DNA of 64,000 nucleotides from Gammaproteobacteria bacterium (GCA_965225625.1 CBDDBH010000022.1:66103-130102), one strand, 5' to 3'; counted from the stretch's first letter, positions 20,312 to 64,000 are shown. Notes: generated by a model from the sequence alone, not told the origin. Numbers and translations are program-made.

Positions 20312-21367
20312 CTAACTTGCGCCAAACGCGCGCTCGACAATCGCAACAGCCTGCACTTGTTGCGCGTCCAACGAGTGCGCCACCGCAATCTGGCCGGCGG
20401 CGCGTACTTCATTATGTTCGCCGCGGGTGCCGTAGTGATCGGGATCCCAACCAAAGTAACGTTCGTTCAAGGCGTCAGCGCAGAATCTGGCCGCGAGTTC
20501 GATCAGGATCACCTGTGTGGCAGGCACGATCGAGCGCCATTCCTCATCGGTCAGTGCAGCGTTCGACGAGGCATATCCCTGTATGGCCGCTTCGAACAAC
20601 GGCAGTGAGAATTCCGCATCACGTGTATCTTCGCCTTCGGGGTTGCACCAGGATCGAAATGCATCGCCTAATTCCAGTGGCAAAGGCATGTTAGTCAAGG
20701 TGTCGAGATCGATCAGACACAAGGCTTGGCTACCATCGGAGGTGAAGACAACGTTGGAGATTTTTGGATCGCCGTGAACGATCCGATCGTTAACGCTCGG
20801 CAGCGGCGGCAGATGGTCGGCCAATTCGAGTATCTCGCGCGCGAGCGGAGCAACGTTCTGGAAACGCGGGTGGTCGCGTTTGCCTGCTAGCGTTTCTGCG
20901 AGGACGCGTAAATGCCGCGCAGTATCGTGGACCCCGGCCCGGGGATTTTTGAATTCGTGTTTCAGATCGGCAAGCGCGGCGTGAAAACGGGCCAGCAGCG
21001 CGCCAGCGGAATGCGCCTGTTCTTTTGAGGCGAGCGTGTTGTAGCAGGATCCGACGATATACGTGAGCAAGCGCCAAACTCTGCCCTGCGCGCGCACGCT
21101 AAGCTTGTTATCGACGCTCGCAACCAGATGGGGTGTTAACAGATTTTTGTCGGCGAGGTGGCGGGTAACCGCGTCAATGTCCTCATGAACGCTGGGCGGA
21201 AAGATCGGATTTACACGCTGTAGTATCCATTGAATGCCCTCACCGGTTGCAACGGTGAACGTGCGATTGATGAGCCCGCTTGTAACCGGCTCCAGCAGCG
21301 CATCGTCCAGACCATAATGCGCTAGCACCGTCCTCGCCACAGCTAGTTCATCAGGGTTTATCTTCAT
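20312..21367 (-). CDS. phosphotransferase-family protein (APH/homoserine-kinase-II-like kinase fold)
   Basis: Brenner motif VHGDPKISNVVF and DxD (LIDLD). The start MKINPDEL at 21367 overlaps the upstream gene by 17 bp. Confidence 0.65.
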   Translation of the reverse strand: MKINPDELAVARTVLAHYGLDDALLEPVTSGLINRTFTVATGEGIQWILQRVNPIFPPSVHEDIDAVTRHLADKNLLTPHLVASVDNKLSVRAQGRVWRLLTYIVGSCYNTLASKEQAHSAGALLARFHAALADLKHEFKNPRAGVHDTARHLRVLAETLAGKRDHPRFQNVAPLAREILELADHLPPLPSVNDRIVHGDPKISNVVFTSDGSQALCLIDLDTLTNMPLPLELGDAFRSWCNPEGEDTRDAEFSLPLFEAAIQGYASSNAALTDEEWRSIVPATQVILIELAARFCADALNERYFGWDPDHYGTRGEHNEVRAAGQIAVAHSLDAQQVQAVAIVERAFGAS

Positions 21368-23501: not shown

Positions 23502-23562
23502 GGCGGACTCTGTTACAATAATATGCCGAACTCTCGGTAGGCGCGAACGGCAGGCAGGCAAA

Positions 23563-46465: not shown

Positions 46466-46483
46466 CGCAAGAAGAATTCTTTT

Positions 46484-48277
46484 TTAAAGGCGCGATGAAT
46501 TTCTCTGGTCGCGCTCGGCGCGCGTTCGCGCCGTTTGTACCTCATCCACGATCAGAGTGCTCGGATCCAGCACCACACCATATAGCCGCTCAGCGGCATC
46601 CAGCGAGACCTTTTCCTCGATTACGTCGCGTCTTACCGCTGCCGAGTCGCGCTCCAGGGGATTACCGACACCACAACCACCCTGGGTTATCACCTGCAGG
46701 TGATCGCCGTTTTGCCATGGATAACTGATCAATTCGTTGGCGTTGATCACTTTGCCTGCCGCCGTTGTAATGGACCGTCTGGCGGGTTCCGGTTGGGAAC
46801 CGCCGGCGATGACGGGGACGGGTCTGGCGGCAGGCGAAAAACCCTGACCGCCGCTGTGCAACCAGCCGTCACCGCCCAAATTGGTGATCTCGGTGCGCAT
46901 TGCTGTGCCGCCGCGCCAGCGTCCCGCGGCGCCGGTGTCCGGTTCGATTTCCCAGCAATCCCAGCGGTTCGGCGTAAAGTCTTCGTAGGCTTCAACGTCC
47001 GGATAACGAATGGAGCCGCTACATACCTCCGGCGCACCGGTCGACCAGCCATCGGTTCCCCATATGGCGCCGGTGCCGCTCGCCGCGTTAAAGAAATCGA
47101 TCGCCGAATACTCCATGTTTTTGCGGGGATCGAAGCCGGTAAGCACCTCGAAAGGTATCGAGCCCCAACCGGACGGCGTTTGCTCTGGCACGACCTTCGC
47201 GAGCGCGTCCCAAACACAATTGATAATCTGCTTGGCGGCGAAATTGGTCGCCGAACTCACCGGCGCCGGCAGTACCGGCTCGGTGACGGTGCCGGGTTTG
47301 GTGACAATGGTTACGGCTCGCTCGAGGCCTTGTGAGATGTGCTCGATGTTGCGTGCGAATGTGGTCAACAGCGCAATCCATGTGGCCCCCGCGGTGTTGG
47401 TGAGTGGACTGTTGATGTAACTCGGCACTTGCGGATCCGACTCGCTGAAATCGATAGTAATGTCGCTGCCTTTGATGGTCACGTCGCTGCGCACGGTAAA
47501 CGTTGGACAGCGGGGACCGCCTTCGCCGACAGACTCACCGTGATACGTGCCGTCCGGAATTTTTTCAATCTCCAGGCGAATAAGCCGTTCGGTATAGTCG
47601 AACAAATCGTCGAAATAATCCTTGATGGTCGGGACGCTAAAACGATCGACGATCTGCTGGATCTCCCGCACAGCGATCCGGTTAGTGCCGAACATCGCAG
47701 CGAGATCACCTTTCTGCACTTCGGGATAACGCATGTTGGCAAGGATCATGTTGAACACGTCCTTACAGATCTCGTCGTTGCTGATCACCCGTAGCGGCGG
47801 ATAGCGCACCCCCTCCGTGTAGATATCCGTTGCCGCGGCGTTGTAGCCGCCAGCCATCGACCCACCCACATCCATCTGGTGGGCGCGGTTGCCGGCCCAA
47901 AACAGCAGTTCACCGTCACGGAATACAGGCACCAGAATATTAAAGTCAGGAAGGTGTCCGCTGGCGCCGCCGGAGTAGGGATCGTTGGTCAAGAACTGGT
48001 CGCCGGGGTGAATGTCGTCCCCGAAAAAATCGATGATCGCGCGCACCGAATACGGGATCCCGTAAACATGTATCGGGATGCCTTCGTAGATGGCAACGGT
48101 ATTGCCCGCACCGTCGAACAACCCCACGGAGTAATCACGTGCTGCGAAATACGTCGGTGAGCGCGCAGTACGTTCCATGGTTGCCGTCATGCGTTCGGTC
48201 ACTGAGCGGAGCAGACAATTAATGATCTCGAAATCGAGCGGGTCTGTTCGCGTGCTGAAAATCGATTTACTGCTCAT
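46484..48277 (-). CDS. hydantoinase B/oxoprolinase-family protein (HyuB-like)
   Basis: Characteristic N-terminus DPLDFEIINCLLRSVTERMTATMERTARSPTYFAARDYSVGLFD; 597 aa. Confidence 0.85.
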   Translation of the reverse strand: MSSKSIFSTRTDPLDFEIINCLLRSVTERMTATMERTARSPTYFAARDYSVGLFDGAGNTVAIYEGIPIHVYGIPYSVRAIIDFFGDDIHPGDQFLTNDPYSGGASGHLPDFNILVPVFRDGELLFWAGNRAHQMDVGGSMAGGYNAAATDIYTEGVRYPPLRVISNDEICKDVFNMILANMRYPEVQKGDLAAMFGTNRIAVREIQQIVDRFSVPTIKDYFDDLFDYTERLIRLEIEKIPDGTYHGESVGEGGPRCPTFTVRSDVTIKGSDITIDFSESDPQVPSYINSPLTNTAGATWIALLTTFARNIEHISQGLERAVTIVTKPGTVTEPVLPAPVSSATNFAAKQIINCVWDALAKVVPEQTPSGWGSIPFEVLTGFDPRKNMEYSAIDFFNAASGTGAIWGTDGWSTGAPEVCSGSIRYPDVEAYEDFTPNRWDCWEIEPDTGAAGRWRGGTAMRTEITNLGGDGWLHSGGQGFSPAARPVPVIAGGSQPEPARRSITTAAGKVINANELISYPWQNGDHLQVITQGGCGVGNPLERDSAAVRRDVIEEKVSLDAAERLYGVVLDPSTLIVDEVQTARTRAERDQRNSSRL

Positions 48278-50364
48278 ACTTTGCTTGCCTCAATGAAAAA
48301 GTCGCCCAAGTGAGTGACTTTAAGGGACCACCCGGGCGGCACAACGACGGTGGTTGTTTCCTGCTCAACCACACACGGACCTTGCACCTGTGCGCCGGCG
48401 GGAATGGCATCACCGTCACAGACACGCGCATCCGTGAACCCGCTTTCCTCAAACCATACCTGGCGGCTACTGCGTAGATATTCGCGAGCCCCGCCGCCGT
48501 CAGCGGGCCATTGCTGAGACTTTACACTCGCCACCTTACCGAACGCGGTCAGCTTGAGATTAGCCACGAACGTTGGTTCAGTTTTGTCGTGATGCGCATA
48601 CAGCGTTTCATGACGCTCGTGGAAGCGTCCGGTGATCGTCCGCAGATCTTTTTCTGAATACCCCTGGCCATTGACCGGTGGCCAGGGGATGTCGATCTGC
48701 TGATATTGACTAACATATTTCATTTCGGCCGAGAGACTGTGCTGGCGCGCCGCCGGCTCAACCTTCTCGGCGTCGAGCATCGACTCGGCGGCTCCGAGCA
48801 TTTCCCGGTACATCTCATTTATTCGTGTCCAATCAAGCTGATCCGTCGGTGTCTCCACGCTGAATACCTGATCGTGCCGGATGTCTGATATCAGGCACCC
48901 CAAGGCACACAATATACCCGACGCGCGCGGGATCAAGACCGTGTCGATGTTCATCATTTTGGCGAGCTCGACCGCATGCCCGGCACCCGCGCCGCCGCCT
49001 GCCATCAACGTATAGTCTTTGGGATTCTCGCCGCGGCGCACGCTTATTACGCCAATCGCGTCCGCCATCTTTACCATGGTCAGCGTGACTATCGCCCGCG
49101 CCATTTCTTCTATGCTCATACCCTTGGGTTCGGCGATCTTGGCAATCGCCTCGCGCGAAGCCTCAACTCCGAGTTGGATCCCGCCGGCAATGGCACTCGC
49201 GGGATTGAGCCGTCCCAGCACCAGGTTCGCGTCTGTGACGGTGGGTTCAGTGCCGCCCTTCATGTAGCACGCGGGACCGGGCGCCGCCCCGGCGCTTTGC
49301 GGCCCGACGTGCAGGCCGCCGGCCTGGTCCAGCCAGGCAATGGTGCCGCCACCGGCGCCGATTGCATGAACGTCTACCGACGGCAGGCCGACATGGTAGA
49401 CACCGGCGACTGTCTGTTCCGAGCGGACCGAGATCTGCCTGTTCTTCACCAGTGAGGCATCGAAACTGGTACCGCCCATGTCGATCGTAATGAGATTGTC
49501 GATGCCGTATTCGTTGCCAAGCCAGATTGCGGCAACGGGACCGGATGCGGGCCCCGACGCAAGTGTGCTGACCGCCTTGGTGACAATGGCATGCGGACTC
49601 ATGACGCCGCCGCTGGAGCTTACGATTAACAGTGCACCTGCATACCCCGCCGCGTGGAGCTTGGCTTCGATGCGGCTCATGTAGGTGCTGATAATCGGCC
49701 CGATATAAGCATTGACGGTGGTGCTTTGAAACCGCAGATACTCGCCCAGCGTTGGCGAGATTTGATGGGAGAGGCTCAGGTACGCTTCGGGATACTCCTC
49801 GCGGCAGATCTCAGCAGCCCGCAGTTCGTGCGCCGGGTTGCGTAACGACCAGAGAAAACAAATTGCGATAGCCGCGACATCCTCTTTAGCGAAGCGCTTT
49901 AACGCGGCGCGAACGTCCTCCTCGTTTAGCGGAGTGAGGACAGAGCCGTCCGCTTGAATGCGTTCGGTAATCGGCCGACGCAGGTTTCGCGGACATAGCG
50001 GCCGCGGCTGCGGATAGGTGTAGTCGTAGAGATATTCCAGCTCGCGCATGCCGCGCCTGACTTCGATGGTATCGCGCACACCTTTGGTGGTGAGCATGCC
50101 GACCTTGGCACCGGCGCGTTCGATAACTGCATTGGTCGTCACCGTAGTGCCATGACAGATCCGGCTGACGTTGCCGAGGAACTCGCGCAGCGTCAGCTCG
50201 TTCGCGGTTGCGGCCTGCTCCAACGCATCGGTAAACCCGATTGATTGATCTGCCGGCGTGGTCGGTGTTTTGACGAGAGTGCGATTACCGTGTCCGTCGA
50301 TCGCGACGAGATCGGTGTAGGTGCCGCCGATATCAATACCGACGTCGAAGCGTTGATCGGTCAT
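48274..50364 (-). CDS. hydantoinase A/oxoprolinase-family protein (HyuA-like)
   Basis: FDVGIDIGGTYTDLV N-terminal ASKHA fold. 4-bp overlap with the HyuB-like gene. Confidence 0.85.
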   Translation of the reverse strand: MTDQRFDVGIDIGGTYTDLVAIDGHGNRTLVKTPTTPADQSIGFTDALEQAATANELTLREFLGNVSRICHGTTVTTNAVIERAGAKVGMLTTKGVRDTIEVRRGMRELEYLYDYTYPQPRPLCPRNLRRPITERIQADGSVLTPLNEEDVRAALKRFAKEDVAAIAICFLWSLRNPAHELRAAEICREEYPEAYLSLSHQISPTLGEYLRFQSTTVNAYIGPIISTYMSRIEAKLHAAGYAGALLIVSSSGGVMSPHAIVTKAVSTLASGPASGPVAAIWLGNEYGIDNLITIDMGGTSFDASLVKNRQISVRSEQTVAGVYHVGLPSVDVHAIGAGGGTIAWLDQAGGLHVGPQSAGAAPGPACYMKGGTEPTVTDANLVLGRLNPASAIAGGIQLGVEASREAIAKIAEPKGMSIEEMARAIVTLTMVKMADAIGVISVRRGENPKDYTLMAGGGAGAGHAVELAKMMNIDTVLIPRASGILCALGCLISDIRHDQVFSVETPTDQLDWTRINEMYREMLGAAESMLDAEKVEPAARQHSLSAEMKYVSQYQQIDIPWPPVNGQGYSEKDLRTITGRFHERHETLYAHHDKTEPTFVANLKLTAFGKVASVKSQQWPADGGGAREYLRSSRQVWFEESGFTDARVCDGDAIPAGAQVQGPCVVEQETTTVVVPPGWSLKVTHLGDFFIEASKV

Positions 50365-53123: not shown

Positions 53124-54395
53124 TCACAACGGTTCAAAATTCTCCCTTGGAACCTCGACCAGACTTTTCTGGTCTGCGATAACCGACGCCGCCCGTACGG
53201 CCTGGGAATGTGCTTGCAGACCTGGCATGTCGCCTCCGGTCTGGTTCGCCTTTGCGGCTCTTAACAGGCGCCGTCGGGTGACAATGATGCCGTCATCACT
53301 GGATACCAGATTCTCAGCACTGCGATCCGCAACTCGCCCCTGACTTTCCTGCACCGCCGTATCCTGCATCGCAAAACTTGGAATGCCGGTGAAGCTCACC
53401 CCGGCGCGCTGTGCTTGCCGATCTTGAAGGTAGTCGTTGTTACGATTTGCGTTGCCCTGGTGAGTCCCGGGGACGAACTCCACATGCAATCCGCCGCCGT
53501 TGCGCATTGCCTCACGCTCCATCGTGCTGAACGGTCTATCAATGTAGTAATTGACCGCCCAACTCCAGCACGAGTAATCATCAACCGGTACCCATGCCTG
53601 AGCGTTGAGACTGAGATCTCCCAGGGGAGCAATGATGTTAAAGCAGGGGAAAATAAACTGGGTGACGCGCCAGTAATATTGACCTTCGCCGGCGTCACGA
53701 CGCGCACCAAGCATCAGGCCACCATCGGTTTCAAGCGTTTCGTAGCGCGGATTGTGATCGCTTGCGAGGATATCGAGGATGCGCGAATCCTTGCCTAATC
53801 CTCCAGTCCCCATCACCGGATCGTCGCTCAATGTACCGCGGTGGAGAAAAGAAAGATGACTGGAGTCGAGCCCACCTTCCATTACCTGCAGATAGTTACA
53901 CTCCTGAAGTCGCTTGGACACGAACAGGTTGTCGACGGGTAAGCCGGCCCATTCCAATGCGGGTGGCGACGGTCGTAACGCTGGCGCACCCATGTATACC
54001 CAGATAACACCGCCGCGTTCGAGCGTCGGATATGCGGTCAGGCGTATCTTGTCTCTAAACTTGTTCTCGGCCGGTTCCGACGGGACATCCAAACAGCGCC
54101 CGTTAACGTCGAAGTGCCAACCGTGGTAGGCGCAACGGATCCCGCAATCTTCGACCCGGCCAAAGTATAGAGACGCTTGCCGGTGCGCACAGGCCTCCGC
54201 GATGATACCGACATTGCCCGCAGAGTCGCGAAAGGCCAGCAGTTGTTCGCCGAGCAAGGGTATGCGTACCGGCGGGCAATCCGGGGTCGGTAGTTCCTCT
54301 ACCGTCAGCGCGGGCAACCAATAACGCCGAAACAGCGCACCCATCGGTGTGCCTGCATTGGTGCGCGTTAAGGTGTCGTTGTTTTCGTGCTTCAT
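53124..54395 (-). CDS. alpha-only Rieske oxygenase (phthalate-dioxygenase/VanA/GbcA-like class)
   Basis: Rieske motif CAHRQASLYFG...CAYHGWHF with the N-terminal GTPMGALFRRYWLPA typical of the PDO-type subfamily. Confidence 0.8.
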   Translation of the reverse strand: MKHENNDTLTRTNAGTPMGALFRRYWLPALTVEELPTPDCPPVRIPLLGEQLLAFRDSAGNVGIIAEACAHRQASLYFGRVEDCGIRCAYHGWHFDVNGRCLDVPSEPAENKFRDKIRLTAYPTLERGGVIWVYMGAPALRPSPPALEWAGLPVDNLFVSKRLQECNYLQVMEGGLDSSHLSFLHRGTLSDDPVMGTGGLGKDSRILDILASDHNPRYETLETDGGLMLGARRDAGEGQYYWRVTQFIFPCFNIIAPLGDLSLNAQAWVPVDDYSCWSWAVNYYIDRPFSTMEREAMRNGGGLHVEFVPGTHQGNANRNNDYLQDRQAQRAGVSFTGIPSFAMQDTAVQESQGRVADRSAENLVSSDDGIIVTRRRLLRAAKANQTGGDMPGLQAHSQAVRAASVIADQKSLVEVPRENFEPL

Positions 54396-54511
54396 TGGCT
54401 TAGGCTGGCGCGCACTGATAAAGGCGAGCGTGTGGAATATGCCAACAGTTGGCGAGCCGCACCCGCGCGCACCGTGCCGATACTAATAAATGTAAACGTA
54501 TCGGCCGTGCT

Positions 54512-55036
54512 TTACCCTGCCTCGACCGATAAACCGATAACAACCGCCGTGGAGCAGTGATACACCGCGCTCTTGGTGCCCAGGCACCAATCGATGTCGT
54601 TGCTCTTCTGGGGACGGTACATCGGCTCTTCACGCTCGTTGCGATTACAGACACAACGGCCACAACTGCTCTTGCCACAACAATCGTTATACGAAATGAC
54701 GTAATCCTTGCCATCCGCGGGGTTGAGGCAGGTCCCTATCCAGGTGATGGGCGAGGGCTCGGTGCCAGGTGGGCATTGCGTTTGTGAACCGCCGCAACAG
54801 GCGCACAGGAAACCATCGATCGCACAATGGCGCCAGTATTCGCAGGTCCCCGGATCACCCGGATCTTCGGCGGGCCCGGGCGCGCGTGACGGCGACTCTG
54901 CGCGTGCGATCGGTAATACAGGAATGGTCGCAGCGCCGACCATGGCGGTGCCGAACTTGGATAGAAAACTGCGTCGGGAAGTCTGCCGTGCAAGGTTGCG
55001 TGAGAAACGTTCGGACCAACGGTCTAACCAGTTCAT
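54512..55036 (-). CDS. mauA: methylamine/aromatic-amine dehydrogenase light (TTQ-bearing) subunit
   Basis: Tat leader TSRRSFLSKFGTAMVGAATIPVLPIAR, near-identical in pattern to known MauA leaders. Mature domain CEYWRHCAIDG...CPPGT...YNDCCG...PMYRP...NDIDWCLG...YHC carries both TTQ tryptophans and a Cys-rich disulfide core. Confidence 0.88.
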   Translation of the reverse strand: MNWLDRWSERFSRNLARQTSRRSFLSKFGTAMVGAATIPVLPIARAESPSRAPGPAEDPGDPGTCEYWRHCAIDGFLCACCGGSQTQCPPGTEPSPITWIGTCLNPADGKDYVISYNDCCGKSSCGRCVCNRNEREEPMYRPQKSNDIDWCLGTKSAVYHCSTAVVIGLSVEAG

Positions 55037-55071
55037 AGTGTGAAGCCTCGTTGCGGTAACAGATTGCAGTC

Positions 55072-56214
55072 TTAGGGAGTTTGGATCACGGTCAGCGTAC
55101 TGGTCGCGCTCAGTTCAACACCGCGCAGACGTTTACCGGTTTTTGCGTCTAACACCTGTAGTTCCGGGCTTTCCAAATTGACGGTATACAGTAGTGGTTT
55201 GTCGTCGCTGCTCACGTTGACCGAGGTCGCATGATGTTCTAGTTCGATACGCTGCACACGCTTCTTTGAGACAAGGTCGTATACCCAGATCTGCTCGGCC
55301 GGTGCTTTGTGTGAGCCGGGCCCGCCCTGATGCATAAGCACGTACATCCTTTTGCTCGCGCTGTGGATGGCGAAGAGCTGATAGCCACCAGGCAGCCAGT
55401 TGTCGGTGCGATCAGCGTCTGTTTGCAGTGACCATGGTTTGGCCAATTTCGGGGTTGCGCCGGCGCCGTCGAATGCGTAGACATCGCCCTGGAAGGATAG
55501 GAAATACCACGTCGAACCGTCTCTTACCGCATCCTCATTGACCAGATCCTTGGACGGGTCGAAAAGCTGTTTGCTCCGCGACTTCTTCGCCGCCTTGCCT
55601 GTATCGTCCAGCGTAATGGTCAGCAGGCTGCCGTCGGCACAAAGCATATGTACGTTGCGCGCATCGCCCGGGTATACGAAAGCGCAGCCGGCCGTGTCGA
55701 TCTCGCCAATGAATTTGCGCGCTTTGGTATCGACTACGGTCACAGTTTGCGCCGGCGTGAAGTTGTAGCTGAGCAGAAAACGGTCGTCGTCGGTTAAACC
55801 CATGTGCACGAGCGTGGGGATACTCAACAGTTGTTTCGGCGGCAAGATTACCTCGCCAACGGCGTCCAGAGTCGTTGGATCGAAGATGCTGAGTACGTCC
55901 GTGCGTACCCCGCGGGTGCCGCGCGAATAAAATGTATCGGTCGAATAGATGACGCTGTAGTCCGAAGGCATCAGCAGCGCATCGTGGAAGCCGCCGGTGG
56001 ACAACATGCCCAGGACGGAGCCATCGTCTGCGTTCACCAGGTAGGCGCGACCGTCGATCATGTTGAAAAAGGCGATGTCGTTAACCCAGACCCAGTGCGG
56101 GTCGAGTTTCGCCGGTAGTTTGGCAACGCTGATCTGTTCAGGTTTCAGTTCCGCCTGTGACACCGATGACCAGAAGATCAAACTTAGCGCGAGGACTGAG
56201 AATAGTCGTGCCAT
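55072..56214 (-). CDS. mauB: amine dehydrogenase heavy subunit (7-bladed beta-propeller)
   Basis: Sec signal MARLFSVLALSLIFWSSVSQA. A 380 aa propeller-sized protein 36 bp upstream of mauA in the same orientation. Confidence 0.7.
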   Translation of the reverse strand: MARLFSVLALSLIFWSSVSQAELKPEQISVAKLPAKLDPHWVWVNDIAFFNMIDGRAYLVNADDGSVLGMLSTGGFHDALLMPSDYSVIYSTDTFYSRGTRGVRTDVLSIFDPTTLDAVGEVILPPKQLLSIPTLVHMGLTDDDRFLLSYNFTPAQTVTVVDTKARKFIGEIDTAGCAFVYPGDARNVHMLCADGSLLTITLDDTGKAAKKSRSKQLFDPSKDLVNEDAVRDGSTWYFLSFQGDVYAFDGAGATPKLAKPWSLQTDADRTDNWLPGGYQLFAIHSASKRMYVLMHQGGPGSHKAPAEQIWVYDLVSKKRVQRIELEHHATSVNVSSDDKPLLYTVNLESPELQVLDAKTGKRLRGVELSATSTLTVIQTP

Positions 56215-56320
56215 AGTGCTATCCGCCTAGTGTGGTGAAGCTGAGAACATGAATTGTCGTGGGTTCACTCGTGCGTATCAAGTGGTTGCCGTACCAGCAG
56301 GCCGGCGGGCCAGATAATCA

Positions 56321-57127
56321 TCAAGCTTGCTCCCACCAACTGATGACCTGCCAGGTATTGCCGTCCACTGCCGGCAACGCCCGTTCGCCGGTTTTGTAGT
56401 CCGCCAGCCAACTCAGGGCAAGCGTTTCACCTTCGCGCCACGGCAACGTTGACAGTCGAATTATGTAGTCGTCGTCTGCAGAATCGCGCTGCGTGTAAGA
56501 GAATTCGCAATCGACCAACGCCCTCACTACATCGAGATCCTCTTTTGCCAGCTCTGCCAATATCGGCAGGGCAACTTCGGCATCGATGGGTTGCACACGA
56601 TCGCGCGCGAACACTGCGTGCGTGTCGGTTACCAACAGGCAGGTCTTCGACGCAGCGTTTTCCAGTACGAGGTGTGCGGCGAATGATTGCGATGCAGATT
56701 CCACTCGCCAGTCTTCTTCGTAGGCACCACTTGGCGCCCACTCGATCATGCAAGCGTTGTTCTCGCACCATTGGAACCAACCCGGCTCTGGAAAATTGAC
56801 GACGGGTTGCAGCGTAAAACCATGCCCACCGGGCGCCCAGTTCGCGGTCGGATACGGCTTCGCGTCCACGTCGCAGGTTGTTATCACACAGGAGCAATCT
56901 TGCGCCGCCAGTGCCAATAATTCGTCATAGTTGCACGCGGCGAGCGCATCACGGTCGGACAAATCTGGACGGTCCGCGGGGATCCGCATGTCGGCGGCTG
57001 CGGACGAGGTTTGCAACCACAGCACGCGCGTGGAGGTGTCTTCGTCACCGTTTTTGTAACGAATGTATCGCCGTCGCCAGCAACCGATCATCTCGGCGGG
57101 GACGGTGGGGGCGGCCTTATTCTGCAT
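56321..57127 (-). CDS. Cys-rich cytoplasmic hypothetical protein at the head of the mauBA transcription unit
   Basis: 268 aa, no signal peptide, Cys clusters (DCSCVITTCD, WCENNACMIEW), no CxxCH; no family recognised. Confidence 0.45.
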   Translation of the reverse strand: MQNKAAPTVPAEMIGCWRRRYIRYKNGDEDTSTRVLWLQTSSAAADMRIPADRPDLSDRDALAACNYDELLALAAQDCSCVITTCDVDAKPYPTANWAPGGHGFTLQPVVNFPEPGWFQWCENNACMIEWAPSGAYEEDWRVESASQSFAAHLVLENAASKTCLLVTDTHAVFARDRVQPIDAEVALPILAELAKEDLDVVRALVDCEFSYTQRDSADDDYIIRLSTLPWREGETLALSWLADYKTGERALPAVDGNTWQVISWWEQA

Positions 57128-57160
57128 TTGATTCTGTTTGATCGAGGGAAGGTTTTATTA

Positions 57161-57423
57161 CCCCTCACCCGACCGCCATGGATGGCGGAAATGCAGGTAA
57201 TGCAGGAGCATTTACCTGCCAGCCCTCTCCCGCCAAGGGAGAGGGAGTTGTATAGGCCTCCCGCAAGGGGAGAAGGGACCCGTGGTTTTAGCCCCTTTCC
57301 CTTTGCGGGAGAGGGGTTGGCAACCGCTTCTCGGCTCTAGCTCCTGCTTCGCTCTAGCTCCTAGGTCCTGTAGTCGTGCGTTGTCTGCATTTCCGCCATC
57401 CATGACGGTCGGGTGAGGGGTCT
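57161..57423. mobile_element. MITE-like element (~265 bp) with 37-bp terminal inverted repeats ACCCCTCACCCGACCGCCATGGATGGCGGAAATGCAG (36/37 match) and internal nested hairpins plus a GCTCTAGCTCCT tandem repeat
   Basis: Read directly. The arms themselves contain the palindrome CCGCCATGGATGGCGG. The element fills the intergenic region between the hypothetical gene start and the agmatinase stop. Confidence 0.55.
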
Positions 57424-57425
57424 AT

Positions 57426-58433
57426 CTATTTTTTCCCAGCAAGATTCTCCGCGGTCAGGCAAAGGATCTCATACATAATTTGTTTCCCGGCTTGCGCGGT
57501 ATTGGTCGTTGCGTCGTATTCTGGTGCGACTTCGACGAGGTCGCCGCCGATGATGTCCAGTCCGCGCAAACCGCGCAGGATCTGTTGTGATTCGCGCGTG
57601 GTCAGACCACCGGTTTCCGGCGTTCCTGTCCCGGGCGCGTACACAGGATCCAGGCCGTCCACGTCAAAGCTGACATAGGTCGGGCCGTCGCCCACTACTT
57701 CGCGTGCTTTGGCGATGGTTGCGTCAACGCCCATTTTTACGAAGTCCTCTATATGAATGACCGTCATGCCCGATTCGTAGGAAAACTCCCAATAGGGTTC
57801 GGCCGCGCCACGAATACCGATCTGGATGGTGCGTTCGGGATCCAGCACGCCAGCGAGTACCGCGTTACGGAACGGACCACCGTGGTGAAATTTGTGATCA
57901 TCAAACCCACCCATGGTGTCGCAGTGCGCGTCGAAATGGACCAGCCCGACCGGTTCGTCGCGGCCCAGCGCCTTGAGAATAGGGAAGGTAATCGAATGGT
58001 CTCCACCGGCGGAAACGCACCTGATGCCTTTGTCCATTACACCGTGGTAATACTCTTCGATGGTGGCGATACCTTTTTCCAGGCTGAAGCCGAACAGCGG
58101 CACATCGCCCGCGTCCGCGATCTTGCACAGCGCGAACGGATTAACGGTCGTCTGGTGGTTGTACGGCCCGACCGACATTGACATGTCACGGATGGCCCTG
58201 GGACCGAAGCGCGCGCCCGGGCGGTGGACGACGCCGCGATCGAAGGGCACGCCGATGAGAGCGATGTCTAATTCGTCGAGGTTCTCGTTGTAGTCGGCGT
58301 CGAGCAGCGTGCGGATACCAACATAAAGCTTGCCGGCAGTTAGCATAGCTGCGGCGAACTCCGGGTTGTCGACCTCGTCTAAAGGACGATCAGCGTATTT
58401 CGCTCTTAATGCTTCCAGTTTCTTTTGATCCAT
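57426..58433 (-). CDS. agmatinase/guanidino-acid hydrolase (arginase family, ureohydrolase)
   Basis: Arginase-family motifs GGDHSITFP, DAHCDT, SFDVDGLDPVYAPGTGTP and IQIGIRG, with no frame breaks. Confidence 0.85.
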   Translation of the reverse strand: MDQKKLEALRAKYADRPLDEVDNPEFAAAMLTAGKLYVGIRTLLDADYNENLDELDIALIGVPFDRGVVHRPGARFGPRAIRDMSMSVGPYNHQTTVNPFALCKIADAGDVPLFGFSLEKGIATIEEYYHGVMDKGIRCVSAGGDHSITFPILKALGRDEPVGLVHFDAHCDTMGGFDDHKFHHGGPFRNAVLAGVLDPERTIQIGIRGAAEPYWEFSYESGMTVIHIEDFVKMGVDATIAKAREVVGDGPTYVSFDVDGLDPVYAPGTGTPETGGLTTRESQQILRGLRGLDIIGGDLVEVAPEYDATTNTAQAGKQIMYEILCLTAENLAGKK

Positions 58434-58517
58434 AGCCTCGTCTCGATTTGTTGCGCATGGTTTGGATGGGTGTCTGCGCCAATATGCGCCAATCGCGATA
58501 CGCCCGCCAGCGACAAA

Positions 58518-59588
58518 CTACCCTTTGTCCGGCGCCTTCCAGATATCGCGCTCCTGCATAAGTGCTATTTGGCGATCGCCGATTTCTTGCTTGTACCAGT
58601 CATGGTTACCCGGGACTTTGTCCAGGTAAAGATTCTTGGGGTAAATCGGCTGTTCGTATATGAGTTGCGCCATCTCGGTCCGTACGTCTTTCATGAAGTT
58701 GGTTATCTGCGCGCTGGCCCGATGATGCCGTAGCGCTTCAATGTTTATCGGGCCTGACACAAACGTCGAGCCGTTGGTATCGCGCTGTTTGCCGACGATA
58801 GTGCCACGGTAATCGACAATCATCGATTGGCCGCCACCAGCGTCAATGCCGGTTTCGCTGTCCGGAAACAAGTGATAACTACCGATGTTCGGCGCGACGA
58901 CATACATGTTGTTATCGAGCGCGCGGGCGCGGTTGGTTATCTCGAACGCATCGTTTTGAGTAAATGGCGCTGGGGTGGATCCTCGATACACGACTTCGGC
59001 GCCGTTCATCGCCAGTCCTCGCCCGTTCTCCGGATAACTGCCCTCAATGGCCATCATGATCCCAAGTCGTCCGATCTCGGTGTCCGCCACCGGCCAGAAG
59101 GCATTGAGAGTGCGGCCGTATTTTTCGACCCACCAGTCGAACAGGTCGTGCGGCGATACCGAGCGTTCGCAAGGTGCCAGTGGCGTGACTTTGTGATGCT
59201 TTAAGATCACCTCGCCGTGGGGATCAATGACGAAGCCGACGTTGAAGAATAAATCTTTCCAGTCCTCGTGCCGGGCTTTCGCCTGGGCCATGATGTAGAC
59301 GTTGTACTCTTTGGCAAGCTCGCCTAGCTGGTCGGTTTCCGGACCTGGAATATCGATGGCGCAGGTTCGAGTGTACTCAGCATGGTCGGCGTCCAGCGCC
59401 TCGTCATTGAAGCCCTGTAGAGCGCCTTCGGGTATGACGAGCAGACGCACCGGGATATCGAGGTTCGACAGCCAGAACGCGGCTTTGGTCAGACTTTGCA
59501 GATGATCTAGGTTCTTTTGAATGTCTTCGCGCTTACGGATCCCCCAGAAGGTGGGGATGAGGCCAACGGCGTTATACGGTTCGATCAT
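58518..59588 (-). CDS. formamidase/aliphatic-amidase homologue (nitrilase superfamily, AmiF-like) with catalytic Cys replaced by Ala
   Basis: Aligns along its length to AmiF-type formamidase (LVIPEGALQGFN Glu motif; VIDPHGEVILKHHK Lys motif). The Cys position in the motif xICHDGxIPE reads MAIEGSYPE (codon GCC). Likely start MIEPYNAV. Confidence 0.6.
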   Translation of the reverse strand: MIEPYNAVGLIPTFWGIRKREDIQKNLDHLQSLTKAAFWLSNLDIPVRLLVIPEGALQGFNDEALDADHAEYTRTCAIDIPGPETDQLGELAKEYNVYIMAQAKARHEDWKDLFFNVGFVIDPHGEVILKHHKVTPLAPCERSVSPHDLFDWWVEKYGRTLNAFWPVADTEIGRLGIMMAIEGSYPENGRGLAMNGAEVVYRGSTPAPFTQNDAFEITNRARALDNNMYVVAPNIGSYHLFPDSETGIDAGGGQSMIVDYRGTIVGKQRDTNGSTFVSGPINIEALRHHRASAQITNFMKDVRTEMAQLIYEQPIYPKNLYLDKVPGNHDWYKQEIGDRQIALMQERDIWKAPDKG

Positions 59589-59714
59589 TGTCAACTCCTC
59601 GAATAATCCTGCACTCTTTATATATATGCTGGCACCCAAGCGCTACCAGCGCGTCTCGCCAGCGAGTATCGCGCCGGTTTACACTTAGCTTTCACGTCCC
59701 AGAGCAGAACAACA

Positions 59715-60062
59715 ATGACCAACCTTTTGCCCTCCGAATTCGCTGATCTGGAGCCCTACCTGGTTTGGGCCCAGTCAACGGAACTGGCTCGCCACCAGGT
59801 TCGCGTTTCCCGATCCATTGAGGAGATCCGCGCATTTTACGACGCCGTGCTCCCCCGCATCGAGGCGATCCTCGAGTATTTGAACGCATTCCCCTTAGAC
59901 GACATGCCAGAGCAGGAGCATCGATTGCTGGAGTTGTCACTGGGTCTGGTCGAGGCCGCGAATGCGGTCGAGATGTTCGAAGAGCCGGGCATGCGTTACG
60001 GCTTCCCTATTGAGCGATTTACACCAAAGCACCACAAGACCGTGCAGGCACGGGGAGATTGA
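59715..60062 (+). CDS. hypothetical protein (115 aa) translationally coupled to the downstream Rieske oxygenase
   Basis: Its stop TGA overlaps or abuts the Rieske gene start; no family recognised. Confidence 0.4.
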   Translation: MTNLLPSEFADLEPYLVWAQSTELARHQVRVSRSIEEIRAFYDAVLPRIEAILEYLNAFPLDDMPEQEHRLLELSLGLVEAANAVEMFEEPGMRYGFPIERFTPKHHKTVQARGD

Positions 60063-60064
60063 AG

Positions 60065-61261
60065 ATGAACGCTGAAACTCACCCTTTTACCAGCGCCTAT
60101 CCGGAACTCGGTACCGGGCCAGTGCCCGTTGAACCTTATATCAGCAAAGACTATTTCGAGCGGGAATGCGCGCAGATATTCGCCCGCACCTGGATCAACG
60201 TCGGCTGCGAAGAACAGATCCCCAATCCAGGTGACTATTTTGTCCGCGAGCTTGCCGTTTGCAACACGTCGGTCATCGTTATGCGTGGCAAGGATAAGCG
60301 CGTGCGCAGCTTCCACAATATGTGTTCGCATCGCGGTAATCCGGTCGCCTGGGAAACGCAAGGGACCTGTAAAGGCTTACTTGTCTGCAACTTCCATGGC
60401 TGGAGTTATGACACCGAGGGAAAGCTTGCATATGTCACCGATGAAGAGCGGTTTTTCAACGTTGATCGCGCCAAAAATGGGCTGACCGCAATAGCCACCG
60501 ATACCTGGGAGGGGTTCATCTTTATTAACCTGGCGCCAGAGCCGCGCGAAAGCCTAGCGGAGTTTTTGGGGCCTGCGGCGGCGGCGATGGATGGCTATCC
60601 TTTTTCGCAATACTCATACACTTACGTGTATGAGGTGGACGACGGGGTTAACTGGAAAGTACTGACCGAGGCGCAGCTCGAAGGTTGGCACGTACCGGTG
60701 CTGCACAAAAAAACGCTGGCGAAATCAGTGGTCAACAAAGGCGAGCTGTTTCGCCACGCGGCGTTGCAGCGTTATGGCCGGCACGCACTGGTTTCCTCGC
60801 ATGCACCTGAGGTTTACACGCCAACGCCAGTTACCGCGGTCAGTATGAAATACGGTGTTGGAACATTCGACGCCTTTTCCGTGGAATCCGAGAACAGCGG
60901 CAATCGCGACATGAAATGGCACGGCGCATTCGACCTTTACCACGTCTTCCCGAACATGTTTCTGGGCCTGCTGCGCGGTACCTATTTCACTTACAACATC
61001 TGGCCGTTAGCAGTTGATCGCAGTATGTGGGAGATCAGGGTTTTCTACCCGCCGGCGGCCAACGCCGGGCAGTTATTCAGTCAGGAATTCGGTAAAGCGG
61101 GGATCCGGGATACCTTACGCGAAGATGCATTTACCCACGAGAAAATCCAATCGGTGCTCAAGTCTGGGGCGAAGCGGCAATTTCATTTGCAGGACGAAGA
61201 ATTGGTGGTAAGACATTTTTTGCGTGTGGTCGACGATTACGTACAGGGAAATTACGAATAA
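60065..61261 (+). CDS. Rieske non-haem iron oxygenase alpha subunit
   Basis: CSHRGNPVAW...CNFHGWSY Rieske motif; mononuclear Fe ligands in EGWHVPVLHKK; GGAG RBS before ATG 60065. Confidence 0.8.
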   Translation: MNAETHPFTSAYPELGTGPVPVEPYISKDYFERECAQIFARTWINVGCEEQIPNPGDYFVRELAVCNTSVIVMRGKDKRVRSFHNMCSHRGNPVAWETQGTCKGLLVCNFHGWSYDTEGKLAYVTDEERFFNVDRAKNGLTAIATDTWEGFIFINLAPEPRESLAEFLGPAAAAMDGYPFSQYSYTYVYEVDDGVNWKVLTEAQLEGWHVPVLHKKTLAKSVVNKGELFRHAALQRYGRHALVSSHAPEVYTPTPVTAVSMKYGVGTFDAFSVESENSGNRDMKWHGAFDLYHVFPNMFLGLLRGTYFTYNIWPLAVDRSMWEIRVFYPPAANAGQLFSQEFGKAGIRDTLREDAFTHEKIQSVLKSGAKRQFHLQDEELVVRHFLRVVDDYVQGNYE

Positions 61262-61279
61262 CGAACAAGAGAGGGTGTT

Positions 61280-62026
61280 ATGGACAAAGAACTACAAGAA
61301 CTGAAAACGCTGTTGCTGGACGTCAAGCAAGGTCTCGATCAGCTGCAGGATGTCGACGCTTTGCAGCGATTGATTGTCAACTACGCGCGCGGCTGTGATC
61401 GCGGCAATGATCCAAGCCTGATCGGTCCGCTGTTTTCGCAAGATGGCACCTGGGAGTGTAAAGGCTTCGGCAAATACATCGGTCGCGACAAAGTCGCAAA
61501 GGGTCTGCACGGCATCGCCGGTGAAAAAATATGGTGGTCGTTGCACTACATGATCTCGCCGCTGATTGACATCGCGCCTTCGGGTGATAGCGCCACGGGG
61601 TTCTGGTATCTGTGGGAGGCCGCCACCATACCGAACGAGGAAACCAACGACGCAGAAGCACACTGGATCGGCGGCACCTATGACACGGAGATGGTAAAGC
61701 GTGACGGCGAATGGTTCTTCAAGAGTATGGAACTGAAGTTGCACATGGCGAGCGGCTACGACCATGGCTGGGTAAAAAAGCGCTTCCCAAATGGGACCCG
61801 CAAACAACCGTATTTCGAAAACCTGGATGCCGGCAGCTACCATTGGTGTGCCTGTGGCCGCTCCAACAACCAACCGTTTTGCGACGGCTCGCACAAAGAG
61901 ACCAAGCGCACGCCGCTGGAATTCAAAGTGGAGGTCCAGGAAAACGTTGTGCTGTGCGGTTGTAAATACTCCAAGACCAAACCGTATTGCGATGGCTCGC
62001 ACTTGAATCTGAACCTAGATGGGTGA
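61280..62026 (+). CDS. NTF2/SnoaL-like domain fused to two CDGSH-type [2Fe-2S] domains
   Basis: N-terminal ~165 aa SnoaL-like region, then CACGRSNNQPFCDGSH and CGCKYSKTKPYCDGSH (two complete CDGSH signatures). Confidence 0.7.
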   Translation: MDKELQELKTLLLDVKQGLDQLQDVDALQRLIVNYARGCDRGNDPSLIGPLFSQDGTWECKGFGKYIGRDKVAKGLHGIAGEKIWWSLHYMISPLIDIAPSGDSATGFWYLWEAATIPNEETNDAEAHWIGGTYDTEMVKRDGEWFFKSMELKLHMASGYDHGWVKKRFPNGTRKQPYFENLDAGSYHWCACGRSNNQPFCDGSHKETKRTPLEFKVEVQENVVLCGCKYSKTKPYCDGSHLNLNLDG

Positions 62027-62035
62027 TCTGCAGCA

Positions 62036-63613
62036 ATGAGAAAAATACTGCCCCCCGGCATTGACCAGACAACCCTGACTAAAGCACTGGACGCCTTCGC
62101 GGACGTGGTTGGCGAACAGTGGGTGTTCGCCGACGAAGCCTCCGGATTAGAGAGTTATCTCGACTCCTACGCCATTGTTGAGCCGGATTACTACGCGCCG
62201 TCCGCGGCCGTTGCGCCAGATAGCGTTGAGCAGGTGCAGGCGATCCTGAAGATCGCAAACGAATACAAAATTCCGATCTGGACGATCTCTACCGGCAAGA
62301 ATCTCACCTACGGCGGGCCGGCGCCGCGTCTGCCCGGCAGTGTCGTTCTGGATCTGAAACGCATGAACCGCATTCTCGAGGTCAATGAGGAATTCGGTTA
62401 CTGCCTGGTCGAACCGGGGGTCAGCTATTTCGACCTGTACGAATACCTGCAAGAGAACAACATCAAACTATGGCTCAGCGTACCCAGCCCGGGTTGGGGC
62501 AGCGTGCTGGCAAACGCGCTCGAGCGTGGCGGCGGTCACACGCCCTATGGCGATCACTTCGGTATGCAATGCGGTATGGAAGTGGTTCTCGCCGACGGTG
62601 AGATCGTGCGTACCGGCATGGGCGCGCTGCCTAACAACAACACCTGGCAGTTATTCAAATATGGCTACGGGCCGTATCTGGACGGCATCTTCACGCAGTC
62701 CAACTACGGCGTGGTAACCAAGATGGGAATGTGGTTGATGCCTGAGCCGCCAGGATACCGCCCGTTTATGCTGACGTTTCCGCGCGAAGACGATATCGAA
62801 CCGCTGGTCGACATCATGCGACCGCTTAAGATTGCCGGTGTCATACCCAATGCGGCAGTGATCGTGAATGTGCTGTTTCAGGCAGCAGTGGACGTTAGCA
62901 AGTCAGAATACTACGACGGTACTGATCCCATTCCCGAGAGCGCCATTAAGAAGATCATGGCGGACAGGGACATCGGCATGTGGAACTTCTTCGGTGCGCT
63001 GTATGGCGATGAACGGATCATGGACGCGCAGTGGCAAACTATTAAAGACGCCTTCTCGGCGATACCTGGTACCAAGTTCTATCTGCGGGAAGACCGCCCG
63101 GACGATCCTGTGATGAAGTATCGCGCCAAAGGTATGTCCGGTGTGCCCAATCTTTCCGAATTCGGTTTCATCAACTGGCGTGGCAACGGCGGTCATATTG
63201 ATTTCTCACCGGTGTCGCCTTCCACCGGCGCCGACGCGCTAAAGCAATACCGAATGATCCGCGATCGCTGTCATGAATATGGTTTCGATTATCTCGGGGT
63301 ATTCGTGCTCGGGTGGCGAGAGATGCACCATATCTCCACGTTGGTATTCGACAAAACCGACGCGGCTGATAAGAAACGCGCGCACGATATGTTTGCAATT
63401 CTTATCGAAGAGGCCGCTGAGCTGGGATACGGCAGTTATCGAACGCACTTGGAGTATATGAATCAGGTTGCGGAAATGTTCAGCTTCAATGATCACTCTC
63501 TAATGCGCTTGAACGAACGACTCAAAGACGCGTTGGATCCGAATGGCATTCTCGCTGCGGGTAAGTCCGGGATCTGGCCTAAATCCTTGCGCGAAAACAG
63601 GGGTCCGCTATGA
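62036..63613 (+). CDS. VAO/PCMH-family FAD-linked oxidase (vanillyl-alcohol oxidase / 4-cresol dehydrogenase flavoprotein-like)
   Basis: PCMH-type FAD-binding domain (PIWTISTGKNLTYGG ... VVLDLKRMNRILEVNEEFGYCLVEPGV) with a VAO-like cap domain; 525 aa. Confidence 0.8.
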   Translation: MRKILPPGIDQTTLTKALDAFADVVGEQWVFADEASGLESYLDSYAIVEPDYYAPSAAVAPDSVEQVQAILKIANEYKIPIWTISTGKNLTYGGPAPRLPGSVVLDLKRMNRILEVNEEFGYCLVEPGVSYFDLYEYLQENNIKLWLSVPSPGWGSVLANALERGGGHTPYGDHFGMQCGMEVVLADGEIVRTGMGALPNNNTWQLFKYGYGPYLDGIFTQSNYGVVTKMGMWLMPEPPGYRPFMLTFPREDDIEPLVDIMRPLKIAGVIPNAAVIVNVLFQAAVDVSKSEYYDGTDPIPESAIKKIMADRDIGMWNFFGALYGDERIMDAQWQTIKDAFSAIPGTKFYLREDRPDDPVMKYRAKGMSGVPNLSEFGFINWRGNGGHIDFSPVSPSTGADALKQYRMIRDRCHEYGFDYLGVFVLGWREMHHISTLVFDKTDAADKKRAHDMFAILIEEAAELGYGSYRTHLEYMNQVAEMFSFNDHSLMRLNERLKDALDPNGILAAGKSGIWPKSLRENRGPL

Positions 63614-64000
63614 CTCAACAAGCACACGTCAGTAACGGCCAATGCCCCATCGCCTTGGAGGAACTCGAACAATCGGCGCAGGATTTCACCACTGCGGTGG
63701 TGCTGCCGTCCGAATGCTATTCGGATCCGGCTTTTTTCGATTTCGAAATGGAGGCGATATACACGCACGAATGGATCTGTGTCGGCCGCGTTGACCAGAT
63801 CCCGGAGCCAGGGGATTTCTACACCATCACGGTAACGGGTGAACCCCTCATCGTCGTGCGCAATCCCGATCGCGAGGTGCGCGTCATGTCAGGTGTGTGC
63901 CGTCACCGCGGTATGGTGATCACGGCGTCGGCGCAGACGACTCCGGAGCATTGGACCGATCCGCCCGCGGAGACCAAGGGCAACTGCCGCAGCTTCCGTT
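63610..64000 (+). CDS. second Rieske oxygenase alpha subunit, 5' part (runs off window end)
   Basis: ATGA overlap with the VAO gene; Rieske CxH motif GVCRHRGMVI; translation continues to the window edge. Confidence 0.7.
   Translation, partial: MTQQAHVSNGQCPIALEELEQSAQDFTTAVVLPSECYSDPAFFDFEMEAIYTHEWICVGRVDQIPEPGDFYTITVTGEPLIVVRNPDREVRVMSGVCRHRGMVITASAQTTPEHWTDPPAETKGNCRSFR

Follow-up and report, generated by a model that had tools for sequence, protein, structure and literature searches.

The last part of a 64,000-nucleotide DNA stretch (the window) from a Gammaproteobacteria bacterium (GCA_965225625.1, CBDDBH010000022.1:66103-130102) carries a gene cluster in which two Rieske oxygenase alpha subunit genes accompany a gene of unusual make-up. 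The latter encodes an NTF2-like domain fused to two CDGSH (NEET-type) [2Fe-2S] domains. It lies directly after the first alpha gene (alpha1) and is separated from the second (alpha2) by a gene for a flavoprotein related to vanillyl-alcohol dehydrogenase (VAD). By sequence comparison, the NTF2-CDGSH fusion is a conserved and previously undescribed family, and its constant partner across genomes is a Rieske alpha gene, not the flavoprotein gene. Our tentative proposal is that CntA-like Rieske oxygenases active in the catabolism of phenolic compounds have in the fusion protein a dedicated partner for electron transfer and accessory tasks; this proposal may well be wrong in this form, but we prefer it to the others considered. 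Coordinates are those of the window; loci with L numbers are related contigs from genomes and metagenomes and have their own numbering.

A search for homologues of the fusion gave 495 matches; the best ~113, at 47-86% identity, extend over the full length and have both Pfam domains. The full-length proteins come from metagenome-assembled genomes of Gammaproteobacteria and from Binataceae, Terriglobales, Novosphingobium and Janthinobacterium, and homologues are annotated generically as 'CDGSH-type Zn-finger protein' or 'nuclear transport factor 2 family protein'. No paper that combines CDGSH and SnoaL, or that ties CDGSH to Rieske oxygenase catabolic clusters, was found in the literature searched. 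A phylogenetic survey of CDGSH architectures gives Fer4_19, Glu_synthase, Ferritin-like and Rieske_2 as partners; NTF2/SnoaL is not among them.

Loci were gathered from genomes, from look-ups of exact proteins and from metagenome contigs scanned with an alignment of the NTF2 part only; open reading frames (ORFs), called by picking weighted by third-position G+C content (GC3), were compared with the window proteins. A scan of genome contigs with the full-length fusion alignment was dominated by CDGSH-only matches, and 6 of its 80 loci were true fusions. Grouped at 90% identity, the 50 fusion loci obtained form 34 clusters, and in 27 of these the upstream flank can be read. A Rieske alpha gene directly adjoins the fusion gene in all 27; in 26 it precedes the fusion gene on the same strand and in one it lies downstream, and the spacers are short, often 4-bp overlaps. 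This adjacency is kept in very different surroundings: beside TauD, PfkB and amidase genes in Novosphingobium; beside UbiD, HpaB, extradiol dioxygenase and PCMH-like genes in Binataceae; and elsewhere beside MoxR/VWA genes or a molybdenum hydroxylase gene with isochorismatase genes. The partner is alpha2-like (38-42% identity) in most loci and alpha1-like (58-64%) in some. The window carries one of each type, as does L125, where p115 (the small gene that precedes alpha1 in the window), an alpha1-like gene and an alpha2-like gene all lie upstream of the fusion. An earlier note on this DNA, made from the sequence alone, had proposed a database search for the neighbours of the fusion, and held that its view would fall if the CDGSH protein were unlinked in related genomes and ferredoxin and reductase genes followed the cluster. 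What is found instead is tight linkage of the fusion to a Rieske alpha gene in near and distant genomes alike.

Genes for a ferredoxin, a reductase or a beta subunit are absent from the operon and from the 10 kb downstream of it, as the earlier note had stated for the cluster itself. The downstream region was read in L001, a longer version of the same contig in a public assembly, which has 2 mismatches to the window in 12,721 shared bases. There the complete alpha2 gene (L001 12331-13551) is followed by a gene for a TonB-dependent receptor and then by genes on the opposite strand; the look beyond position 64000 that had been recommended thus brought to light neither ferredoxin nor reductase. 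No reductase was present in a gene census of window positions 34-56 kb or among the 25 commonest families in a Pfam census of positions 1-35 kb, and a tblastn search of the whole window with the reductase of a related locus as query gave no FNR-type match. When such a reductase was compared with the 50 fusion loci, an FNR-type homologue was found in 0 of them. The cluster does not, then, have the layout of a canonical two- or three-component Rieske system, where a reductase, with or without a ferredoxin, is encoded with the oxygenase. A Pfam census of the surroundings of the fusion (134 ORFs within 5.5 kb, at 16 non-redundant loci) counted 22 Rieske proteins (20 of them also with Ring_hydroxyl_A), 13 with FAD_binding_4, 9 UbiD and 5 cytochrome c, along with HpaB, molybdenum hydroxylases and amidases; the 25 families most frequent in it include no reductase family, plant-type ferredoxin or Ring_hydroxyl_B.

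The metagenome scan gave 24 loci with CDGSH-less relatives of the NTF2 domain (41-47% identity, 147-224 amino acids), with genes in the order alpha1-like Rieske, p115-like, NTF2, amidase. In two of these lineages, the L143 group and L154, a Rieske ferredoxin gene stands immediately after the NTF2 gene, and in the L143 group it is followed by a gene for a reductase with Fer2, FAD_binding_6 and NAD_binding_1 domains. The CDGSH pair of the fusion therefore holds the position that a ferredoxin gene has in these unfused lineages. As far as gene order can tell, this positional equivalence favours a ferredoxin-like role of the pair more strongly than any other comparison made here.

The CDGSH domains themselves are canonical. 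Pfam zf-CDGSH is matched with 71.6 bits (cut-off 29.5) over two stretches, and both motifs, CACGRSNNQPFCDGSH and CGCKYSKTKPYCDGSH, fit the consensus C-x-C-x2-(S/T)-x3-P-x-C-D-G-(S/A/T)-H; the motif is thus present twice in one chain, as in class II (tandem) CDGSH proteins. The pair matches the solved bacterial tandem chain 3TBN with E 2.6e-20 and human CISD3 with 1.7e-15. Among 24 homologues the four ligands of motif 2 are invariant, and those of motif 1 are at least 90% conserved, being lost or degraded in 2 of the 24, both distant. The two mitoNEET-type [2Fe-2S] domains predicted in the earlier note are well supported by these motifs and matches, and each would bind a cluster. A model of the whole fusion made with AlphaFold 2 has a predicted local distance difference test (pLDDT) score of 89.6 and a predicted template modelling (pTM) score of 0.84, and this confidence suggests that the NTF2 and CDGSH parts form one compact unit. 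Clusters of mitoNEET are redox-active, are reduced by reduced flavin mononucleotide (FMNH2) and have a midpoint potential of ~0 to -30 mV (PMC9490426).

The NTF2 domain had been taken for a fold like that of a Rieske beta subunit, but its relatives are enzymes. It matches SnoaL_4 with 70.6 bits (cut-off 24). An NTF2 profile run against PDB gave LdpA (E 2e-10), LinA (2e-8) and BaiE (9e-8), with no Rieske beta subunit at E<=10. LdpA chains filled the first seven ranks of a Foldseek search with the domain, and no beta subunit was in that list. Similarity to PF00866 (Ring_hydroxyl_B), by which beta subunits are recognized, is not seen, and homology to the beta subunit was rejected. LdpA (PDB 8ABT/8ABV) is a trimeric, cofactor-less diarylpropane lyase that acts on a lignin beta-1 dimer by a quinone methide route; mutagenesis established as essential a His97-Asp40 dyad and a phenolate oxyanion hole of Tyr35 and Tyr147. 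In a HMMER alignment LdpA His97, Asp40, Tyr35 and Tyr147 correspond to His89, Asp40, Tyr35 and Tyr134 of the fusion, which thus has both the profile match and the His-Asp dyad of SnoaL_4 enzymes. These four residues are invariant in 24 diverse homologues, 43 fusion ORFs and 23-24 NTF2-only ORFs; His89 was within the search pattern behind the metagenome set, and Tyr35, Asp40 and Tyr134 were outside it. To judge from this pattern of conservation, it is very probable that a phenolate-type ligand is bound in an active site of the domain. The fusion was nevertheless rejected as an LdpA orthologue: Glu143 of LdpA Motif II, part of a Glu-Tyr-Gln triad peculiar to LdpA, aligns with Ile130 and is replaced by Ile or Val in all sequences, and identity to LdpA is only 22-24%.

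Both alpha subunits have the CxH and CxxH motifs of a Rieske cluster and the residues of a catalytic iron site. In alpha1 these are C87-S-H89, C108-N-F-H111 and E206-x2-H209-x4-H214 (EGWHVPVLH); Asp354 is a candidate for the third iron ligand, assigned by motif alone (EDAFTHEKIQ). In alpha2 they are C97-R-H99, C131-P-Y-H134 and EGYHPSRLH. The spacer between CxH and CxxH is longer in alpha2 (31 residues), with an insertion of ~12 residues relative to CntA that includes an extra Cys (GNCRSFRCPYH). Of the NCBIfam models, GbcA fits alpha1 best, but with 109 bits against a cut-off of 670, a score so far below this equivalog cut-off that a different substrate is expected. Matches of alpha1 in PDB include phthalate dioxygenase alpha and CntA (E 1e-24 to 1e-27). 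The best PDB match of alpha2 is carnitine monooxygenase CntA (E 7e-33), and a Glu of alpha2 is aligned with the bridging E205 of CntA. On these similarities both alphas resemble beta-less alpha3 monooxygenases of the CntA/GbcA type. Such monooxygenases need no beta subunit, and the characterized ones carry out hydroxylations of the N- or O-dealkylation type.

The product of p115 is predicted to form a four-helix structure and has no Cys; alpha1-type Rieske subunits have in it a conserved companion. The CDGSH-less clusters with p115-like genes (L139-L164; for example L143 4874-11388 and L148 5817-12606), some of which add genes for a cytosine/purine-type permease, a cupin, a Rieske ferredoxin and an FNR-type reductase, look like an uncharacterized multi-protein Rieske system.

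The flavoprotein belongs, by domains and similarity, to the 4-phenol-oxidizing VAO/PCMH group. The earlier note was right in this, though 4-alkylphenol as a substrate was too specific: the closest member is VAD, which is inactive on p-cresol, and the protein has a dehydrogenase signature. It is ~68% identical over its full length to VAD of Marinicaulis flavus (PDB 8S7P; phmmer E 1e-222), with weaker matches to EUGO (1e-175), VAO (1e-165) and PCMH (1e-152). Its motifs are VPSPGWGS, with Pro152 at the N5 site, GGHIDFSP, with the flavin-linking His, and YRTH. The VAD clade signature comprises the N5-site Pro, the flavin-linking His and an Asp before the Pro (PMC7617285). That preceding residue is Ser in the window protein (VPSPGW) and Asp in VAD (VPDPGW), and a small residue followed by Pro is the classical dehydrogenase pattern. 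VAD has a flavin potential of +82 mV and uses neither O2 nor bovine cytochrome c; its physiological acceptor was not identified, and an endogenous cytochrome c was suggested (Guerriere et al., 2025).

The VAD gene of M. flavus was not among the homologues returned, the best of which (86% identity) is on a 2.4-kb contig, and gene context was judged from two relatives 79-81% identical to VAD. In both, a small cytochrome c gene follows the flavoprotein gene with a 4-bp overlap, and a gene for a 128-136-amino-acid protein with a twin-arginine (Tat) signal precedes it. VAD homologues are present in 17 of the 50 fusion loci, and outside the window they mostly show the same order of Tat protein, flavoprotein and cytochrome c, usually with UbiD. 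This context supports, at the level of gene order, cytochrome c as the acceptor of VAD itself, and suggests that the relatives so accompanied are exported by hitch-hiking. Small RRxF proteins with Tat signals and no Pfam match are encoded at L007 10752-11312, L088 12313-12918, L166 7598-8008 and L167 7599-7985, in each case before a VAD/PCMH-type flavoprotein gene that has cytochrome c after it; these proteins may be Tat 'escort' subunits that serve the export of a flavoprotein with no signal of its own.

The window differs from these relatives. No ORF with CxxCH is found near the cluster, the next gene after the flavoprotein being alpha2, and no small Tat-signal protein gene adjoins the flavoprotein gene; the adjacent cytochrome c gene that marks a PCMH-type flavocytochrome is therefore missing. 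The flavoprotein of the window is thus probably cytoplasmic and would need another acceptor; apart from the CDGSH protein, no redox protein is at hand. The homologue in L170 (closest to that of the window, 73% identity) is likewise without cytochrome c and has no CDGSH gene within 8 kb. A hydantoinase B gene lies divergent from it (L170 904-2664), and hydantoinase A/B genes are also found in the window, with an S15 peptidase gene, upstream of the cluster at 44333-50364; this hints at a shared pathway context.

The features of the cluster are given in Table 1. Its five genes are co-directional and closely spaced by ORF analysis, as had been noticed before. The four Rieske, CDGSH, VAO and Rieske genes named at that time are real, and p115, the first gene, had been left undescribed. 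Overlaps had been counted at three junctions, which is too many: given the ATG start of alpha1 at 60065, only the flavoprotein and alpha2 genes overlap (ATGA, 63610-63613). With that start, which is the public gene call and has GGGGAG 8 nt upstream, p115 and alpha1 are separated by 2 bp; they would overlap only if alpha1 started at TTG 60059. The spacers are 18 bp between alpha1 and the fusion and 9 bp between the fusion and the flavoprotein gene. A scan for promoters and terminators did no better than on shuffled sequence.

Table 1. Genes and domains of the cluster at window positions 59715-64000 (aa, amino acids)
Feature	Position	Strand	Description
p115	59715-60062	+	115 aa; orphan, no Pfam or NCBIfam match
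Rieske alpha1	60065-61261	+	398 aa; Pfam Rieske 53.6 bits, Ring_hydroxyl_A 101 bits; directly upstream of the fusion gene
NTF2-2xCDGSH fusion gene	61280-62026	+	248 aa; SnoaL_4 and two zf-CDGSH stretches (Pfam)
SnoaL_4 (NTF2-like) domain of fusion	61280-61789	+	Residues 1-170; LdpA/LinA-type site Tyr35/Asp40/His89/Tyr134
CDGSH motif 1 of fusion	61847-61894	+	C190, C192, C201, H205; CACGRSNNQPFCDGSH
CDGSH motif 2 of fusion	61955-62002	+	C226, C228, C237, H241; CGCKYSKTKPYCDGSH
VAD-type flavoprotein	62036-63613	+	525 aa; FAD_binding_4 and FAD-oxidase_C (Pfam)
Rieske alpha2	63610-64000 (cut by window end)	+	First 130 aa; Pfam Rieske; complete gene 406 aa

The proposed function can be set out as follows. 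The operon, from p115 through alpha1, the fusion, the flavoprotein and alpha2 to the TonB receptor, would be a catabolic module for phenolic compounds of the 4-hydroxybenzyl type, probably derived from lignin or plants; the UbiD, HpaB and extradiol dioxygenase genes of related loci fit phenolic catabolism. The two NEET-type [2Fe-2S] clusters, standing where related clusters have a Rieske-type ferredoxin gene, would form a ferredoxin-like module that passes single electrons to the Rieske cluster. The NTF2 domain, probably a trimer as are LdpA and the alpha3 oxygenase, would dock this module on the oxygenase, in the manner of a beta3 ring, and probably also carry an intermediate with a phenolate group through an acid-base step (an elimination or lyase reaction). 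Reductant would come from outside the operon; candidates are reduced flavin, by which mitoNEET is reduced, and a housekeeping reductase. The VAD-type enzyme would oxidize the 4-hydroxybenzylic position of the same or a related substrate. The earlier suggestion of a non-canonical electron-transfer arrangement for aromatic catabolism thus holds in that the arrangement is real and conserved and the phenolic context fits; the mechanism given here is conjectural.

Several observations weigh against this proposal. The positional equivalence of the CDGSH pair and a ferredoxin gene is seen in two lineages only. With ferredoxins of related loci as queries, a Rieske ferredoxin homologue is present in 3 of the 50 fusion loci, among them L087 and L090, where its gene adjoins the alpha gene in divergent orientation; since these two retain the gene, the CDGSH pair is not always a replacement for it. 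In L169 the alpha gene is two genes away from the fusion and convergent with it. Genes for Rieske reductases and ferredoxins are frequently unlinked in sphingomonads and other bacteria, which makes their absence from a locus weak evidence. The Rieske clusters of oxygenases have potentials of about -100 to -150 mV, so a NEET cluster at ~0 to -30 mV would have to pass its electrons uphill, unless the potentials of the bacterial clusters are set lower. In addition, the invariant catalytic-type residues may mean that the NTF2 part is itself an enzyme and that the CDGSH domains serve for sensing or cluster donation.

This last point can be extended to a different account of the protein, with the NTF2 domain as its core. 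A lyase or dehydratase of the LdpA/LinA/BaiE type would act on an unstable product of the neighbouring Rieske oxygenase, for example by eliminating, via a quinone-methide-like intermediate, water or a leaving group. The CDGSH domains would be a redox- or iron-sensing or structural appendage, and the oxygenase would draw its electrons from an unlinked generic reductase and ferredoxin. This account is unlikely but deserves serious attention, as the nearest relatives in sequence and fold are enzymes and not beta subunits, and the four invariant residues match the mutagenesis-validated dyad and oxyanion hole of LdpA. Furthermore, the CDGSH-less NTF2 gene adjoins alpha1-type genes even where ferredoxin and reductase are encoded, which indicates a role for the NTF2 domain that is independent of electron delivery. 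The fusion itself, the invariance of two Fe-S domains across ~110 full-length clusters, and the absence of reductase and ferredoxin genes from fusion loci against their presence in an unfused lineage are left unexplained by it, and with Ile or Val in place of Glu143 the chemistry would not be that of LdpA. It is improbable that the CDGSH pair, instead of carrying electrons, is a dedicated factor that donates [2Fe-2S] to the alphas for their Rieske cluster or repairs that cluster. Uncoupled Rieske oxygenases make reactive oxygen species that damage clusters, which would give such a factor a use, but dedicated cluster donors for single enzymes are unusual in bacteria, which have Isc/Suf. The strict genetic linkage of the fusion to a [2Fe-2S] client protein fits cluster donation, as does the transfer of labile clusters from oxidized eukaryotic NEET proteins to apo-acceptors in one account (PMC8463382); neither a fused NTF2 domain with an active site nor the positional equivalence with a ferredoxin gene would be explained.

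More doubtful still is that the fusion is a redox hub that accepts the electrons of a cytoplasmic VAD-type dehydrogenase in place of cytochrome c and feeds both Rieske alphas with no NAD(P)H reductase. The window invites the idea: its flavoprotein has the dehydrogenase signature, is related to an enzyme that uses neither O2 nor bovine cytochrome c, lacks the usual cytochrome c and Tat genes and any small c-type cytochrome ORF nearby, and is wedged between the CDGSH gene (9 bp) and alpha2 (ATGA), and electron transfer from flavin to a NEET cluster is documented. The potentials are unfavourable, however, at +82 mV for the VAD flavin, ~0 mV for NEET and lower still for Rieske clusters. In most fusion loci the VAD-type gene has a cytochrome c and Tat partner, which would place the enzyme probably in the periplasm and apart from the cytoplasmic CDGSH protein. 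Three further points tell against such a hub, namely the restriction of VAD homologues to 17 of the 50 loci, the lack of both cytochrome c and a nearby CDGSH gene in L170, and the presence of another gene between the fusion and the VAD gene in L004, an 86% relative. Coupling of VAD and CDGSH as a function of the whole family was rejected on account of the low number of loci and the usual cytochrome c and Tat partners. Lastly, the genes might be mere neighbours in a catabolic island, the fusion having no specific tie to Rieske or VAD proteins. The region is indeed a mosaic, with insertion sequence (IS) elements near the cluster in relatives and with genes beyond the alpha gene that vary widely among loci. 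Yet the adjacency of an alpha gene in 27 of 27 clusters, across phyla and unrelated contexts and often with 4-bp overlaps, is far beyond chance, and coincidence is effectively refuted by it. A dedicated partnership of the fusion with Rieske oxygenases is thus retained as the preferred, if tentative, explanation.

To our knowledge, no function has been assigned to the CDGSH/NEET proteins of bacteria, widespread as they are, and every Rieske oxygenase that we know to be described is fed by a reductase, with or without a ferredoxin of the Rieske, plant or 3Fe-4S type. If the partnership holds, a NEET-type module locked to a Rieske clade would represent a new class of electron-transfer or accessory component, would give a bacterial CDGSH protein a defined task for the first time, and would offer a tractable bacterial system for NEET cluster chemistry. 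The oxygenase core of alpha, p115 and an LdpA-like NTF2 protein is common in soil and aquatic metagenomes, where it is found beside amidase or phenol-catabolic genes. The window also bears on the acceptor of VAD, as close VAD relatives have a cognate cytochrome c and Tat partner and the window enzyme has lost both and adjoins an Fe-S protein. Should the redox hub exist after all, oxidation of one phenolic intermediate would power oxygenation of another; a VAD-type enzyme would then have a physiological acceptor other than a cytochrome, and a bacterial NEET-type protein would for the first time have an enzymatic role.

Other parts of the window and of related loci show features of their own. 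A divergent cluster on the minus strand at 53124-59639 encodes a LigXa_C-type Rieske oxygenase, the light and heavy chains of a tryptophan tryptophylquinone (TTQ) amine dehydrogenase, a 268-amino-acid protein with no Pfam match, an agmatinase-family ureohydrolase and a CN_hydrolase. The ureohydrolase scores 275 bits, below the 302-bit cut-off of the agmatinase subfamily NF002564 and above that of TIGR01230 agmatinase. The order of these genes is identical in L004, and their content suggests a linked pathway for aromatic amines or for guanidino or amide conjugates. L004, L005 and L006 have an extra 149-amino-acid lipoprotein-like ORF (lipobox LSGC) and a 29-amino-acid ORF between the fusion and the flavoprotein gene (L004 10794-11464), and in L004 genes for IS110- and IS4-family transposases follow the TonB receptor gene (17003-19625); the extra ORFs and transposases indicate that the locus is undergoing rearrangement. 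A pyrroloquinoline quinone (PQQ)-dependent dehydrogenase with a C-terminal CxxCH, of quinohaemoprotein type, is encoded on the minus strand at 21351-23561. It and an unannotated 85-amino-acid ORF at 24989-25243 are the only ORFs of at least 80 amino acids with CxxCH in the window.

Among known systems, the CntA, GbcA and Stc2 alpha3 systems, each consisting of an oxygenase and an FNR-like reductase, are like the window cluster in the Rieske motif, the Ring_hydroxyl_A domain, the E-x2-H-x4-H site with its bridging Glu and the typical alpha sizes of 398 and 406 amino acids. They differ in that the cluster has no GbcB/CntB-type reductase gene, its constant neighbour being the NTF2-2xCDGSH gene instead, and in that alpha1 has the extra orphan partner p115. 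The NTF2 part resembles the Rieske beta subunit in its fold, in its similar size (158-190 amino acids in unfused relatives) and in the position of its gene directly after alpha, often with translational coupling. With the group of LdpA, LinA, BaiE and scytalone dehydratase it has in common the long N-terminal helix, the NTF2 cone and a C-terminal extension. This extension is an arm in LdpA and two CDGSH domains in the fusion, and LdpA is not described as a partner of a Rieske oxygenase. The flavoprotein has the N5-site Pro, the flavin-linking His and YRTH in common with VAD (8S7P) and the PCMH flavocytochromes; its gene is without the cytochrome c and Tat-signal neighbours that the 79-81% VAD relatives have. 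The tandem-CDGSH proteins of class II, represented by 3TBN and CISD3/MiNT, likewise have two canonical motifs within ~70 residues of one chain. In the fusion, by contrast, this pair follows an enzyme-like NTF2 domain as a C-terminal tail and is linked, by its gene, to Rieske oxygenases.

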